A stretch of 55,509 bases of DNA, counting the filler, from Sphacelaria rigidula (Eukaryota), in the NCBI GenBank assembly GCA_964200075.2. It is 4 parts of 4 records of this genome, joined end to end, with 100 filler letters (N's around TTAATTAATTAA, not from the genome) between each part and the next. Parts side by side here need not be neighbours in the genome. Positions count along the whole stretch, not along the records: positions 1 to 13,804 come from CAXNAA020002656.1; 3 more parts are not named here. One strand, written 5' to 3'. A program made the position numbers and the translations under genes. Each line of letters starts with the position of its first letter. Position 1 is the stretch's first letter. The notes under the pieces are model-generated. The model ran no database searches, had not been told where the DNA came from, and saw nothing but the letters and a program-made list of their open reading frames with translations. This document shows positions 3,434 to 16,441 of this stretch, one piece after another.

Positions 3434-5037
3434 GTTGCAACAACGAATCTCGTCACCGTGTTATTGAAACGCGCTGCCACCAATAATAAGTAGTTGACAC
3501 TGTTGGTAGTAGGGGCGGCATGTTCAAAAATGCCTGCCTGGGACATCTGCTTGTCGCAGTGAATGCGCCAGGGCGATATCCGCGGGACGATGCCATGAAC
3601 TGTACGACACGTGCATACAGTACTGCAGCATAGTACTAGAAGTGCGGAACAACATAAACTCGGCAGAAGTCAAATACGTACCTTCGCTGAACGCCGTCCG
3701 AGACTTCGGGCGACTATCAGACAAGTGACAGAACCATATTTTCGAGAAATATACGTGGTATTTTTTGGTCCAACTTTTGACCTCGTCCGTTCCCAATAAA
3801 CGATCCACCCCCAACTTGCTCTGTCCCGAAAGGGATGCGTGGTCAATGGTCACACGACTAAGGCAAGCAACAAATGAGTAAGCCACGGCAACCCACACCC
3901 CCCACCCCAACACAAGGGANNNNNNNNNNCCCGACTTTCTTTGTCCCCGAAAGGGGGCGGGGTTGATTGCCCCCCACATAAGGCAAACAACAAAGTATTC
4001 CCCCCCCCCCCCCCCCCCCAACTTGTAAATGCCATGTTTAGAGCCTATACAGGTCACCATGAGAATAACATGATTATCCTGTCCTAACATACTCTTCCTG
4101 CCATATGTCACCAGTCAACGAACTACGCATATACGACTTGTTCGACCACCGATTTCAGCTCATACGCTTTCGCCTGACCATCTCCAGTGGGACCAAAACA
4201 CGTTCTTTATTTTAGTAGTGGCATCGGATATACCTATCATCAGTGCCCATCAGTGATGCAACATGACCACATCTAATGCCTAGAAACGAGAAAAAATAAT
4301 TGGACTTCACGCTCGACGCGAACGCCCTGGCCTTTGCTTGACCATTCCTCGAAAGTGACAGTGCAGCATCACACTTAGCTAGGTTCTAGCTCGAATGTGG
4401 ACCTCGTTGTGCCGAGGGTTTCATACTTTCCAACTCACGCACGGCGCGGTACACACTCGAACGGCATACATTTCATCGTCAATCGGAGAATGATGGCCTC
4501 TTGCTAGTACTTCATTACACCCTAAACTGAAGAGTAGATGTTTCATCGACCAGACCAACGCTTTTGAAAATGATATCGTAGCCTAAACTTCCTCAAGCAC
4601 TACTTTGCTCGATCTCCCCTCAAGTGACAGTTGTACATTTTACCATCCTCCAATTCGAGCGTGGGGTTTGCTCGGCCAAGCCTTGACTGACGGCATCGCA
4701 CCTCACTCTTGAGGGTATAATGTGTCTTTGCTTAACATGTCTCAGGGAAATTCTCAGTGTCCTTTGCGTCTGACGACTATTAGTGTACTCCCCAATTTTT
4801 GGAACGTGAACTCATGGGAACAATACCATATTGTATACCAAGGACTTCAGAAAAGTCCCATCTTCGACACATCGCGATAGTTTCATTGCAGCCTTCGCTA
4901 GATAACAAATCATGCGCCCCCATGCGCCCCAGGCCAAGTCCCCATACTCTTGCAACGGTGTGTCCGTATCTCCTTTCCTGTGCTCATCCGAGGTAACTTG
5001 CACCTCAACAGGTAATTCAAAACTCAACCCAGGTATA

Positions 5038-5478
5038 ACACGATATTTTACAAAGTGGGGGTGGATTTTTTTATTGAGCATGAGAACCCGGGGGCTTCAA
5101 ACCTTCGTACCCACACCAAATCTTCGACTAATAGTTCCACTCCTCAAAATACTGGTAGCTATTAACAACTACTATACGCCATACCAATTTGGATCCTGAT
5201 AACCGACATGTTGGGGTCCAAGGTGAAGAAAATATTGTGGGGAATCGAGATGATCCGATCAGATCGCCAAAATTCCCCAAAATCGTTTTACACCCATGAC
5301 CCGAACATTTCAGTTACCGGATTCCAAATTTGTATGGCGTGTCGTAGTTGTCAAAAGCTACTACCAAGTGAAGAAAAGAAGCCATATTTCAAAGATATGG
5401 TGTGGATACGAAGGTTTTCATTCTCCGGGTTTCTCATCCTCACTAAAAAATCCATGCCCAATTTGCAAAACCCCGTGT
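5038..5478. mobile_element. ~441-bp palindromic foldback element, copy 2, flanked by TA
   Basis: TA|ACACG...CGTGT|TA. Same length and internal motifs as 229-669. Confidence 0.85.
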
Positions 5479-6479
5479 TATGTGGGCAAGCTCCCATGGC
5501 CACATGACACACAACTTGCAGTAAATTTCTCTGCCAACAAACGCGTCACCCGGAACGCATCACGTTCAAACATGGATCGAACGTAGCTCCCGAAGAAGAC
5601 ATTGGCCAACCTTTGGAAGCAACCCAAACTTCTCGAAGGAAGGGCATTTGCTCGCACAGCGTCTTATCACATTGTGCGTGGTACCGTCCGGCAAGCATAA
5701 TCATAACGCCGTGACTCTTCGCAAGCCCAACGCTCCGTCCATTTTCCGCTGCCTACGCCGGAGACCGAAAAAAAAACCCACAGAAGCCGACCACATGGCT
5801 TTTGTCACTGCTTTTTCCTTCCTTTTTGCTGGCGCTACCGTTCATGCCTTACCCAACTCTTACACTCCTGCAACCATAAATGCCACATTCTCCTCACTTG
5901 TCACCAAGCTTTGCGCAAGTCCACCTGCTTCCCTCTCAGACCCCCCTGGACTCAGAACAAGGTCAGAGGACTGCTCCAAGGGCTTCCTCATCGGGGCTTG
6001 GAGACTTCAAGGCAAATACTTTTGAGAAGCACACATGAAAAAAATTCAGCCTTCGTGATCGGAAGAAACCACGTACCTCCTTACATCATGTCACGCGTGA
6101 AGCAGTCATGGTCAGACTCCACGGGATATTCCATGACCTAATGCCATGGAACTCATATCCAAGTCGCTGTATCAACAGACACGTAGCATGCACTCGCGAG
6201 TGTACTACAGGTGCCGTAATTCACACCCCTCATAAAGCAGTTCACCCCGCCTTCGTCAGTATGAGACTAGATCTTGTCCTGCCAACCCGCAATCGTTGTT
6301 GAATCGTACCGGTTGCAGTTCTCCGTTACAGCGCTTCAGACACTCCGCTGTATCTTCAACCGCACCCATACCCACGCCTTTGGCGCTAGACAATCTCGCA
6401 GTGCCTCCAGTAGTACCATTGGCTACCGCCGGGAACTCCCGTTGCGTGGTGATTGTACATAATTCAGCACATTTGTCCG

Positions 6480-7981
6480 CTGTTTGCATCCATGTCCCCG
6501 AGGCAGCTGCTGCGGCTGTGCGAGCACAAGAAACCCTCGACCAGCGTGTTGAACCATTTCCAAACATGAGCTTCTGCAGTGATGAACGCTATGCAACGTC
6601 TTGGATGCGCTTGTTCACTTTTTCTCAAACGTCAGCTGCTGCAGCGACGCTGGTCACAATAACCCTAGATGGCCTGGTTGAAACAATTTCCAAACGTCAG
6701 CCGTTTGAACGACACAGGTCACATGACGCCCTTGACGGGCTGGTTGTTCTGTATCCAATTGTCACCCACTGCAGCGACGCAGGCCACGCCACATCCTGGA
6801 TCGGCTGGTTGAAGTGATGCCCGAACGTCAGCCGCTGCAGCGACGCGGGCAACGTCACACCCTCGATCGTCTGGTTGAAATCCTCTCCGAACGTTAGCTG
6901 CTGCAGCGACGCAGGCCACGTCACACCCTCGATCGTCTGGTTGAAGTTATTTCCGAACATCAGCTGCTGTAGCGACGCAGGCCACGCCACACCCTCGATC
7001 GGCTGGTTGAAGTCACCCCTGAACGTCAGCTGCTGTAGCGACGCAGGCCACGCCACACCCTCGATCGGCTGGTTGAAGGCATAGTCAAAACTCAGGTGCT
7101 GCAGCGACGCAGGCCACGCCACACCCTCGATAGGCTGGTCGAACATCGTCCCCAACCTCAGGTGCTGCAGCGACGCAGGCCACGCCACACCCTCGATAGG
7201 CTGGTCGAACATCGTCCCCAACCTCAGGTGCTGCAGCGACGCAGGCCACGCCACACCCTCGATAGGCTGGTCGAAGGCAACTCCGAACGTCAGCTGCTGC
7301 AGCGACGCAGGCCACGCCACACCCTCGATAGGCTGGTCGAACATCATCCCGAACCTCAGGTGCTGCAGCGACGCAGGCCACGCCACACCCTCGATAGGCT
7401 GGTTGAAGTCAGTTTCGAACGTCAGCTGCTGCAGCGAAGAAGGCCAGACCACCTTCGTGATGGGTTGATTGAAGCCTGCTCGCATTGAACTACCATCGCT
7501 CCGGAACACCATTTTCCTCACTTGCGGGGGCCAGATAATATAGTCCAGACTACGGTCAAACATACGGTCAAAGTACCAGTTTCGCACGTTGGACAAAAGA
7601 TTGGTCTTGCATAACATGATTGCCCGTCAGCACTCAACGTCCACACGACACTGTGCGCTCGTAATAAAGGCACTCGAGGTTTATCATTGCTACCCATCCT
7701 TCCAGCTGTCACAGTCGGAGATTGCTCGGCGGGATCGGCCCACAGCCTGCGCGGCGTAGATCCATCAAATTTGACCAATAGGGTGCTTACGCCGCGGCAA
7801 GCGATGCAGAGCTGCAGTGACGCCAGCTGTAATTGTTTTGTCGGCAAATACGACCTTCCCCCTGAGGAAGCCTCGTTGAGGGCCGTGGTGAAGGCGTCCA
7901 GACAAAGGTTGCTGCCTGTGTCACAAACATGGGACGAGCGCTGTGCGGTTGAGCTCGTCTGGGATTATCAAGCAGAGACGT
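6480..7981 (-). pseudogene. Intronless F-box-like + FNIP-repeat gene, disrupted
   Basis: The 5' part reconstructs as (ACG)SLLD-IPDELNRTALVPCL-DTGSNLCLDAF... with frameshifts near 7965, 7922 and 7620. Repeats below ~6750 carry frameshifts and stop codons. Confidence 0.7.
6697..7617 (-). CDS. FNIP (LRR-like, 22-aa) repeat ORF, the intact core of the disrupted gene
   Basis: Eleven consecutive units of F(N/D)QPIEGVAWPASLQxLxFxxx with a 66-bp DNA period. Confidence 0.8.
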   Translation of the reverse strand: MLCKTNLLSNVRNWYFDRMFDRSLDYIIWPPQVRKMVFRSDGSSMRAGFNQPITKVVWPSSLQQLTFETDFNQPIEGVAWPASLQHLRFGMMFDQPIEGVAWPASLQQLTFGVAFDQPIEGVAWPASLQHLRLGTMFDQPIEGVAWPASLQHLRLGTMFDQPIEGVAWPASLQHLSFDYAFNQPIEGVAWPASLQQLTFRGDFNQPIEGVAWPASLQQLMFGNNFNQTIEGVTWPASLQQLTFGEDFNQTIEGVTLPASLQRLTFGHHFNQPIQDVAWPASLQWVTIGYRTTSPSRASCDLCRSNG

Positions 7982-10176
7982 GAAACCCGTCGCGAGTTGA
8001 TGACGCAACCTGGGTCGGTGCATATCCTCAACGAACGACGAAGGAATCGGACTACAGCATGTGAAAACAGACGCTGCACGCTATTCAACATCGCAGGCAC
8101 GTATTTCTCAGCCTTGTCCCACCTCCAGATGAATCGCGGAAATGCCATCATGTCGAATTATCTGCGGATTTTACCGACTTGCCCACGATGACACCATATA
8201 TGCGTACTACTCCAACGTACTGCGGCTTTGTCCACAGGCAGTGAAGGAAATCCTGAACGTTGACTTCGCGGTGTTGTATAGCACCGGCTATTCACCAACT
8301 TGCACTAGACCACTCTTGTAATTGCGTCGGTACGCCAGTCGGCCATAATTCGCCGTGACGGACGAAAGTATATTGGCAGAGAAGTGCTCGTGCTCAAGGG
8401 CTACAATTCGCTGAGCTGTAGGTATTGTACAGCAGTACCTACTATATGCGTCATGTTTTCGCTATATATATTTTCATTGCTCAAGACCCGTCGCACCTGC
8501 TGTCGTTTCGAAGCCCGTGTCGCACACGCCAGTCCGCGCAATGCTGTGACTGTTTGCAGTCGAAATGACTGTGCCGCAAGAACGCGCCATCACGCAGCAC
8601 TCCACGCCGACAAATTTACAGTGAAGACTGAGCACACGTGTAGACCTTCTCGTGATGTTTCTTCACTCGTGCACACCTGCAATCGGATAGACGTAAATCG
8701 ACATTGGGAGATTGATAATGAGTGACTGCACCATTCTATGCATATCACTTTCCACAGAGATTAAATCCACAAGCTGGGGATGCTTAGCACTTGTACCGCT
8801 GTAGCTAGAAGTACAGCGTGGCAATCGCGGCACGAATAAGCGGAAGGCAACTATCAGTACATGGTTGTATCACGTGCCTTCATGCCAAACGTTGACAGAC
8901 GGTAGTGGTAGCCGCCTACAGCACAGTTGTGAAAGCTGTACATGTGAATCGATAGGCTTCAATATCGCCAATCGGTAGCTCAACCAGTGGCGTTACCGAT
9001 GCTAACCGTGACGTTTCTCTCCTCTCGAAGCTCCATCTCGAGCAACCAGCGTACCGATCCAAAGCACTAGAGTGCGTATCGTATTGTTCGCTTGTCGTCA
9101 ACACCTCGAACCAACCCGCACCAACAAGACAACAGGCTATATCGTGGAAAATATTGAAAATGCTGCCTGTTCGACCAGACTTGGATTTGTACAATATGTC
9201 GAACGCTACTCTCTTACAAACAGCACCAGCCCGGTTGCGATCTGACCCTGCCTTCAGTCGCTCCCCAACGTCGCCCTTACTTCTCCTTTGTACCCTCGCT
9301 GGGCCGACACATCCGAAAATAAACCGCGTATCGCGGAAAGTTTCCAGGTCTTGACCTTCATGAGATCAAGGCAATTAACCCATGTATACACACAAGGTTG
9401 ATATTCCAGTGCCCCCTGGTCGGGACAGACGGTAGCCAACACATCGCCACCTGTGCTGGTGTTGTTGCAGCTCTTCATCGGGATAATGACCTCCATGTAC
9501 AGAAGCATGAGACACCTTGGTGTACCCTGCTACATGTTTCAACTGTAAGACAACTTTCCTGGTGTCTTCCGCGTTGTGTTAAACACTACACCCGAGGAAA
9601 TACGCGGTAAACCACCGCAGTTCAGGGAGCAATACCCCATACTAACTTGTGCACATTGGTACCCAAACCTCTGGCTTCTTCATATTTCGGTCAGAGTTCT
9701 GGACCCCTATAACTTACATTGTGTCTTTTTCCTACCACCGTCCTACAAAATCACAAATGCCGTTTTATCGTTTGGGGGTGGGGTATTTGGATGGTCAAGC
9801 TGCGGGTAACGACGCAAATCGTTACGCTGCTGGCGTAGAATATTAGATTTTCATCTTCTGAGCATCCGACGGAACGTTGCTGAGCCGGTGACGGCCTTAC
9901 GACGACATCAAGATCTCTCGGAGTGTAGTCCTCGCTGTTGCACTGGCTGTTGGCTATGCGCATGACTTGCCACGAGCTCGGCGGGGTGCCGCAGAAGCCG
10001 AAGCGATATCACAGGTGTTCGGTGCCAAATAACACTCGAAACGGGCTGCCTTCCGTACACTTGTTCGACACATGACACTTTCATCTATCCTCCGATGCAT
10101 TTTATGGAGATCGACCACAAACCATTCCGCTGTAGTAAGTTCGACCTGGATGTTGAGCAGAAAAGGAGTTTCGCTA

Positions 10177-15314: not shown

Positions 15315-15892
15315 TCCGCGTGTACTCTGGGTATCAGGCAACGGACTGTGTACATCACAAGAGAAGGAAATAAAGCAGGTCAAGATAACGGAGAGCCTCG
15401 CCCCCCCCCAAATGTGCACTAAACTAAACTAAAATCTAACTGTCTAGCACAGGCCACCGGGGTTCGTGGTTACTCTGAGTATCAGGCAACCGACTGCATG
15501 CATCGCAAGCGGAGAAAATGACAGCAAATCTAAATACCGGGGAGTCTCGCTGCTCTAGAAATGTGCACTAAACTCAAATCTCAATGCCTAGCACAGGGCA
15601 TCGGAGTCCGCGTGTACTCTGGGTATCAGGCAACGAACTGCATACATAGGAAGAGAAGGAAACAACAGCAGATCAAAACACCGGGGGATCTCGCTCCTCC
15701 GAAAGGGTGCACTAGACTAAAATCCCATTGCCTACCACAGGACACCGGAGTCCGCGTGTACTCTGGGTATCGGGCAACGGACTGCGTACATAGCAGAGGA
15801 AGGAAATGAAAACATATCAAAATACCGGGGAGTTTCGCTCCTCTAGAAATGTGCACCAAACTCAAGTCTCATAGCCTAGCACAGGGCACCGG
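15315..15892. repeat. 144-bp tandem repeat, 4 copies
   Basis: TCCGCGTGTACTCTGGGTATC(A/G)GGCAAC-type unit starts at 15315, 15463, 15607 and 15751. Confidence 0.92.
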
Positions 15893-16441
15893 ACAGAAAC
15901 TACCTACTACTGTGCCCGTCTCCTACTTCTGTCACTAAAACGTTGTGCACATATCCTAGTTAGTTCACTAAACCCTAAAATACAGTCTGCCTAGCACAAT
16001 CACGCAGCCATGCCAACAAAACAAGACCGAACATTTTCAAAATGTTTCCCACGTCCCACGCCAATAACCCTGCCCCGGCGGCGGTGTCACATGCAGGCCC
16101 GTTCACTTGCCATTCGGGATAGCCTGCCTGACTCGGCTACAAACGTGGCGGCTGTCCCCAACGCCCCCGCACTCGTCATGGGTCCTGGCCCTGACTTAGT
16201 CTGCCCAACTCGCGAAGAGTTCTCCAGAATACGACGCACACCGGATCAAGATCCCTTCCGAAACAAGTTGAAAGCAAAAACGTAGCTATATTTTCTGAGC
16301 CGCGCTATCGGAGACGCCCTTGAACGGTCAGGAGGGCCCCCCGAACATCACCAGTACAAGAACCAGCCAAACCGCGCCCGTCGCTGCGAAAAAACCTCAA
16401 GAAGAAGAACTAATGCTTTCTGACGAAGGCAATAGTCAACA

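Follow-up and report, generated by a model that had tools for sequence, protein, structure and literature searches.

How can a tandem repeat array keep one part of its unit nearly frozen while another part differs from unit to unit? The question is raised by an array of FNIP repeats within a 55,509-nt stretch of Sphacelaria rigidula DNA (assembly GCA_964200075.2; hereafter the window). An original prediction, made from the sequence, had proposed an intronless gene in which a fixed 39-nt framework serves as a handle for swapping hypervariable 21-nt cassettes among FNIP loci in the manner of VLRs, with an F-box-like N-terminus coupling recognition to ubiquitination. All 11 units lie within a single 309-codon open frame on the minus strand (Table 1), which scores 192 bits for Pfam FNIP (PF05725) against a cut-off of 21, and the repeat-unit consensus has the FG-xx-FN motif with P13 and WP. 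Units 2-6 carry the proposed framework without a mismatch, units 7-8 with 2 mismatches, units 9-11 with 3-5 and unit 1 with 11, and the ten heptapeptides listed for the adjoining segment were all found in their stated order. Units 4 and 5 are the same at 66/66 nt in the assembled sequence. The variation in the 21-nt segment is real but uneven: among units 2-10, the framework differs at 0.056 per base, codons 16-19 at 0.20, the Gly codon at 0.36 and the final two codons at 0.685. Variation is therefore centred on two codons per unit, the xx of FG-xx-FN, and is not spread over the whole segment. The reading that we favour, with a probability of about 0.6, is that concerted evolution homogenises the scaffold of a large, intron-containing brown-algal FNIP family while selection keeps distinct residues along a binding edge, in a manner resembling fungal HNWD genes.

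Table 1. Features of the FNIP gene, listed 5' to 3' along the minus strand; positions are those of the window
Feature	Position	Strand	Remarks
Predicted upstream coding exon	8497..8590	-	ATG 8590-8588; 31 codons + one base; open frame in phase with exon 2
Predicted intron, GT...AG	7916..8496	-	581 nt, phase 1; GT donor at 8496, acceptor 7917-7916
Conserved N-terminal domain	7626..7915	-	two helices, then degenerate LRR strands
Missing base relative to closest paralogue L068	7624..7625	-	alignment with L068
Two degenerate, non-homogenised cap repeats	7474..7623	-	translation; AF2 strands 14-17 and 36-39
Internal ATG within cap-repeat region	7617-7615	-	
FNIP/FGxxFN array	7473-6748	-	11 units, 66 nt (22 aa, WP subclass) each, as assembled
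xx codons (last 6 nt per unit), units 1-6	7413-7408, 7347-7342, 7281-7276, 7215-7210, 7149-7144, 7083-7078	-	
xx codons (last 6 nt per unit), units 7-11	7017-7012, 6951-6946, 6885-6880, 6819-6814, 6753-6748	-	
Short C-terminal tail	6697..6747	-	further unit read out of frame; stop 6699-6697
Three dead repeat units 3' of live array	6556..6746	-	out of frame, with stops

The gene departs from the original prediction in containing an intron upstream of the repeat exon, although the repeats do all share one exon. Three observations point to this intron: an in-phase AG at most 14 nt upstream of the N-terminal domain, preceded by a pyrimidine-rich tract, in 42/42 in-frame paralogues; a GT donor joined to an in-frame upstream exon; and a contig from run X5 (of unrecorded kind) that stops at 8496 and carries a loose end of 13 letters identical to 7902-7914, where exon 2 begins. 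As a single contig with a short side, the last of these gives a hint of splicing. Reads cover 7998-8462 in X1 and X4 and not in X5 and X6, a hole that proves nothing, depth being no measure of expression.

The spliced frame terminates after 163 aa, ahead of the repeats, so that in the window allele the N-terminal domain is out of frame with them. A 134-nt contig spanning the frameshift site is exact in X1, X5 and X6 (three of the four runs compared, from two studies, one run possibly being the source of the assembly), and an assembly slip is therefore unlikely. The allele is probably null, as expected for a birth-and-death family. In run X4, an 8-letter loose end at 7624 fits the in-frame version of the site, which suggests either a null/intact polymorphism or a paralogue outside the sample. 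At the other end of the gene, the three dead units are recognisable by nhmmer (E 4e-11, 6e-12 and 6e-8), and the C-terminal tail is common to the window, L068 and L066, with a 65-nt spacing before the 12th unit in all three. A one-base frameshift shortening the 3' end of the array was seen in the window (6556-6747), L068, L066, L050 and L074. Given this shared frameshift, the out-of-frame repeat that forms the tail and the trailing dead units, it seems that arrays lose units at their 3' end.

We then placed the locus within its family. A Pfam search of the same genome, in which 150 of 822 candidates were scored, gave 49 other loci with 993 units as a lower bound; the window locus is thus one of at least 50 paralogues in an assembly fragmented into 27,214 contigs. 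Units stand at 66-nt spacing in one frame in the window and its paralogues alike, arrays comprise 4-38 units, and in 11 of the 49 loci at least 5 units lie behind a stop or frameshift. Statistics were computed on 47 arrays, including the window, with 794 interior units; excluded were the short arrays L039, L054 and L079, any unit containing a stop and, in every array, the first and last two units. Identity to the array's own consensus, on a measure of our own that is not T-REKS Psim, is 0.80 in the window array and at least 0.7, the internal conservation used to define HIC repeats, in 37/47 arrays. The closest paralogue, L068, is 92% identical over 2 kb upstream and 89% over 1.8 kb downstream, and has 20 live units against the 11 of the window array. 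Between the two, edge units correspond and middle units do not: the first 45 nt of unit 1 are the same, and the penultimate windows, encoding HH, are 1 nt apart. The older arrays L056 and L075 are colinear and retain most xx pairs, a stability that speaks against the favoured reading. On these sequence comparisons, the repeat exon behaves as a coding minisatellite of high internal conservation, in which units are gained, lost and combined into mosaics from one close paralogue to the next. Three very homogeneous arrays (L049, L061 and L046) show a higher-order, 3-7 unit periodicity of their xx pairs, which points to duplications of multi-unit blocks.

Related sequences are known from other genomes. 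The named database relatives are brown-algal (Scytosiphon, Undaria, Pylaiella), and among database relatives xx are again the positions of highest entropy (365 units in 111 of 150 proteins). Previous work counted 104 brown-algal FGxxFN sequences (PMC9525666) and 121 FNIP proteins in Saccharina japonica (PMC4421812); brown-algal FNIP genes are also on record in PMC2373305 and form an orthogroup that ranks among the largest of those with a putative viral origin (bioRxiv 10.64898/2026.04.27.720984). In Cafeteria virophages, FNIP genes constitute a hypervariable region (PMC10945749).

Modelled with AF2 (pLDDT 81), the repeat frame forms a single short strand in each unit, at codons 16-19, and xx lie in the turn immediately after it. 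The best fold match in the PDB is CroV539 (7ZAL; TM 0.78, 42% identity, E 3e-14), in agreement with the proposed LRR-like character of the units; a PDB sequence search returned two CroV proteins as its sole matches. The equivalent residues (positions 8-9) are located on the edge of the concave face and vary more than any others in CroV, mavirus and Dictyostelium (PMC9525666). It is on this published placement, and not on coordinates of our own model, that the exposure of the xx residues depends; together, the model and the publication put the variable residues directly after the concave beta-strand. In L068, residues 138-147 (the second cap-repeat loop; about 7500-7474 in the window) form a lengthened loop at the xx-equivalent place, where pN/pS is 1.2-2.3 at most positions (disjoint pairs; the alignment is uncertain there).

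Units of the window array do recombine, as had been proposed: 6 of 21 informative site pairs fail the four-gamete test. Concerted evolution within loci is also seen in neighbouring units being slightly closer than distant ones (a difference of 0.156 at offset 1 rising to 0.186 at offset 9). Frameworks are also unusually alike between loci. Across eight homogeneous arrays, framework silent difference between loci was below that of the unique part of the same exon in 28/28 pairs, with bin means of 0.13-0.21 for the framework and 0.17-0.55 for the unique region. In the framework consensus, P11 is CCT in 41/42 loci and V8 is GTG in 42/42, even though roughly one single unit in five deviates at such silent sites; without exchange between loci this constancy has no explanation. 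Rare-marker tracts shared by distant loci showed no excess (4 vs 7.0; 23 vs 17.2), leaving the slow framework clock as the one sign of exchange between loci. Because single-locus simulations failed to slow the drift of the consensus, the simplest cause is ectopic conversion that copies short stretches of framework. Conformist expansion, that is, unequal crossover needing perfect matches, was also tried and was rejected, giving a consensus drift of 0.33-0.45 against the observed 0.14. Base composition differs between framework and unique regions, and slow framework divergence may instead come from constraint at the DNA or RNA level.

The xx codons behave differently. Pooled over the 47 arrays (794 interior units), pN at xx was 0.65-0.66 against a pS of 0.44 at codons 1-20, within-array pairs being non-independent; pN at xx exceeded pS in 43/47 arrays, with 0.71 vs 0.14 in the window array. 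This contrast stems mostly from the homogenised framework and not from very fast change at xx. In the 13 most homogeneous arrays, framework silent difference is 0.06-0.25 and xx difference 0.50-0.70, and silent third-position difference in the same arrays is higher near xx (G20 0.42, T18 0.34, F19 0.33, F1 0.29) than far from it (L14 0.11, S13 0.12, Q15 0.08). Since silent diversity peaks beside xx and drops within about three codons, xx variants are older than the frameworks surrounding them. The variation at xx is also greater than chance would give: across the family, unit pairs with at most 3/60 non-xx differences differ at 2.1-2.25 of the 6 xx bases, compared with 0.5-1.1 in six control two-codon windows. 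Two codons per unit, lying just after the concave strand with a peak of silent diversity alongside, thus escape homogenisation.

Does selection hold these codons apart? In line with the original prediction, the variable codons change no more slowly than silent sites. For unit pairs that separated recently, the ratio of point changes at xx to silent changes is 1.26 (locus bootstrap 0.80-2.05). A further comparison, made on 11 disjoint paralogue pairs and not as a tree-based per-site test, and excluding three loci with extra cap repeats, gave a ratio of 1.66 for first-unit xx relative to silent sites of the unique region (p=0.025), 1.18 for the xx of the non-repeated cap (p=0.35) and 0.28 for the first-unit framework. 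With the point-change interval including 1 and the cap ratio at 1.18, positive selection appears only weakly. The xx composition is strongly filtered, with D, Y, E and N enriched 2.2-3.8x over a uniform codon expectation and P nearly absent (0.08), and for this reason a ratio near or above 1 exceeds what relaxed constraint would lead one to expect. We also ran toy simulations of conversion under simple models, taking as target a framework difference of at most 0.25 with an xx difference of at least 0.5, the state of 13/13 homogeneous arrays. Neutral simulations reached it in 1/70, 0/13, 3/34 and 9/106 cases, and simulations with selective retention of xx in 23/46 and 22/23. Neutral models with strong mismatch rejection reached it in two narrow settings (3/4 and 3/3 low-difference arrays), the last series consisting of 15 neutral settings only, and unequal crossover alone with selection gave not a single homogeneous array (0/108). 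Selection at xx is favoured by these results, and not proven.

The same peak of silent diversity would be expected if xx were simply the least constrained loop, its six free bases forming a cluster of mismatches that conversion tracts rarely cross. This neutral explanation is unlikely, though it accommodates several of the measurements: both the interval on the point-change ratio and the cap value of 1.18 are compatible with it, and simulations with mismatch rejection of 0.5-0.7 give an xx difference of about 0.62 at a framework difference of about 0.30. It does less well with the most homogenised arrays, since neutral settings with a mean framework difference below about 0.2 give a mean xx difference of at most 0.28, whereas five real arrays at 0.06-0.14 hold 0.55-0.68; the first-unit ratio and the filtered composition also speak against it. 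Targeted hypermutation of the six bases, either DGR-like or through error-prone repair at a recurring break, would account for the 26 of 72 spanning-tree edges that join near-identical units differing at 3-6 of 6 xx bases, and for several in-frame indels at xx. We consider it very improbable, given that the silent rate in recent pairs is 0.08 within xx and 0.12 in the framework (5 events), that single changes are ordinary and largely transitions without a one-base bias, that dead units of close paralogues differ at 1/6 xx bases, and that xx are stable in old colinear arrays.

Frameworks common to the whole family and recombining units are also what one would expect if variable 21-nt cassettes were swapped among FNIP loci by their identical frameworks, as originally predicted, in a VLR-like and possibly somatic process. 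The results nevertheless leave such swapping quite improbable. None of the array's 11 windows of 21 nt was found among the 993 units of the 49 other loci, and identical windows between distant loci amounted to 2 pairs only. Sharing of xx hexamers across all loci is above its null (600 vs 382-434), but the excess comes from close relatives, distant loci sharing 162 against null means of 186 and 210. No exact match of 66 nt or more joins different loci among the 47 arrays; the longest is 61 nt, and most of the longest (53-61 nt) run through the framework and stop at xx, those few that cross xx being between close paralogues. Within the 55.5-kb window, which contains N gaps, the search for donor cassettes returned only the three dead units directly 3' of the array and one weak 23-nt match, although donors may lie among the candidates left unscored (150 of 822 having been scored). 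An artefact, in which collapsed or chimeric paralogues of a short-read assembly produce both the frozen framework and the mosaic unit order, is improbable as well. The assembly is indeed fragmented, frameworks are the same over 53-61 nt between loci, the array contains an exact repeat of 119 nt, and short-read assemblies of HNWD repeats can drop, invent or chimerise units (PMC12222747). Against this, both flanks and both edge units match one paralogue, L068; no window is copied from another sampled locus; frameworks carry locus- and clade-specific silent markers; and the variability of xx recurs in independent database proteins.

Concerted evolution of the scaffold with selection at the binding edge could proceed as follows. 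Within the framework, short tracts of gene conversion together with unequal crossovers would homogenise units, mostly within a locus and partly between paralogues, and exchanges that overwrite the xx pair of a unit would tend to be purged by selection. Ordinary point mutation, at a rate between neutral and mildly positive, would supply new xx variants. Every intact paralogue would then display its own row of polar or aromatic residues on one edge of a CroV539-like solenoid, and may bind its own putative partner, most plausibly a fast-changing foreign protein. It is doubtful that matters go as far as brown algae having made a giant-virus-type repeat into a recognition repertoire spanning the family, a system of more than 50 genes given one scaffold by ectopic conversion, with selected two-residue tags, reshuffling by unequal crossover (perhaps mitotic) and a degenerate F-box routing targets, possibly viral, to SCF.

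The last element concerns the N-terminal domain. In an alignment of 42 paralogues, L28, Q29, C36 and R40 are invariant, and the helices, predicted by AF2 at 2-16 and 25-42 (pLDDT about 60) ahead of the first strand, have a pN/pS of 0.42. The position and pattern of this domain recall the F-box of viral F-box-FNIP proteins. The Pfam F-box was absent from 6 N-termini at E up to 10 and from 66 relatives at E up to 1. A fold search with the N-terminal model matched mainly over residues 33-191, and was thus dominated by the LRR part; it gave no row linking the two helices to an F-box, an absence that excludes nothing. The ESM Atlas offered only leads below 0.9, the top listed clusters being mostly FNIP and some having an F-box in 13-16% of members. 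Skp1 genes are present in this genome, and a complex prediction for the N-terminal 140 aa of L068 with a brown-algal Skp1 standing in from a different species (P0167) scored 0.10 against a mark of 0.34, in an alignment-free run with uncertain partner fold, and so carries no weight for or against binding. Fusion of F-box and FNIP is on record in viral proteins (PMC9525666). That the N-terminus might link targets to ubiquitination is a lead only.

How does this family compare with known systems? It shares with the CroV539 (WP) subclass of FNIP/FGxxFN proteins the 22-residue LxxLxFGxxFNQPIExVxWPxx consensus and the fold (PF05725; 7ZAL), and differs in that the window gene is a host gene with an intron and a conserved brown-algal N-terminal domain. 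Huyton et al. 2022 already draw the VLR comparison for the FGxxFN repertoire (PMC9525666); the data on DNA-level homogenisation, selection and between-locus sharing come from the present analysis. Reports on the same family in brown algae (PMC4421812; bioRxiv 10.64898/2026.04.27.720984) treat it, in their available text, as a sign of viral origin and leave repeat dynamics aside. A parallel is Podospora HNWD, in which concerted evolution acts within and between paralogues and a few codons of the binding face are hypervariable (PMC1805685, PMC13449251). HNWD/NWD genes likewise combine near-identical tandem repeats, hypervariable codons, changes in repeat number and pseudogenes (PMC1805685, PMC12222747, PMC13449251). 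The FNIP arrays differ from them in having LRR instead of WD40 repeats, two adjacent variable codons instead of four positions, and about 1,000 units instead of 69. Only FNIP passes the Pfam cut-off, both in the window frame and in 66/66 relatives, so that Pfam detects no signalling domain in these genes, and neither NACHT/NB-ARC nor a death domain accompanies the window frame; a recognition role for them is putative. With these differences, the arrays appear to resemble fungal HNWD self/non-self sensors rather than a cassette-swapping immune system.

Other repertoires are more distant. The VLRs of jawless fish carry their diversity on the concave face of an LRR fold, and PRDM9 zinc-finger arrays and the repeat-variable diresidues of TALEs are homogenised coding minisatellites with variable contact residues. 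Unlike VLRs, the FNIP locus has neither an incomplete germline gene nor, in the 55.5-kb window, flanking donor cassettes, and unlike PRDM9 and TALE arrays it gives no sign of a one-unit-one-base code. The ROCO-LRR and NB-ARC-TPR genes of Ectocarpus (PMC3341825, which also summarises the concave-face diversity of VLRs) are similar in that they too are repeat genes that undergo birth and death and repeat reshuffling, and whose ligand-facing residues are diversified; they have one repeat per exon and a fused GTPase or NB-ARC, whereas the FNIP repeats share one exon. The word 'FNIP' occurs 0 times in the main text of that paper. On the features tested, the window gene is not VLR-like, and it is neither an NLR nor a repeat-per-exon gene.

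The FNIP family, its variable positions and, in HNWD genes, the mechanism are already known. In a mostly non-subscription literature, supplements aside, we came across no account of algal FNIP repeats undergoing concerted evolution or selection. Because the window allele is probably dead, the value of the locus lies in its family, for which a viral origin is putative. If the two variable codons are under selection, this family would represent a third, intron-independent recognition repertoire, fungal-HIC-like, and would offer a simple test system of about 1,000 units differing mainly at two positions. If the family-wide repertoire reading is true, it would extend HNWD-like generation of diversity beyond both NLRs and fungi.

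The remainder of the window contains further repeats. Seven other long frames had no Pfam match. At 1396-1736, a 123-nt tandem repeat of 2.8 copies lies inside overlapping open frames on both strands, of which the 184-aa plus-strand frame has no Pfam match. A 144-nt tandem repeat occupies 15315-15893 (4 copies, 77% matches). At 5035-5481 is a 447-nt MITE-like element whose long inverted arms match imperfectly (37 nt at 81%, 146 nt at 72%), and copies related to it are located 3' of other FNIP loci (L068, L066, L071 and L045).
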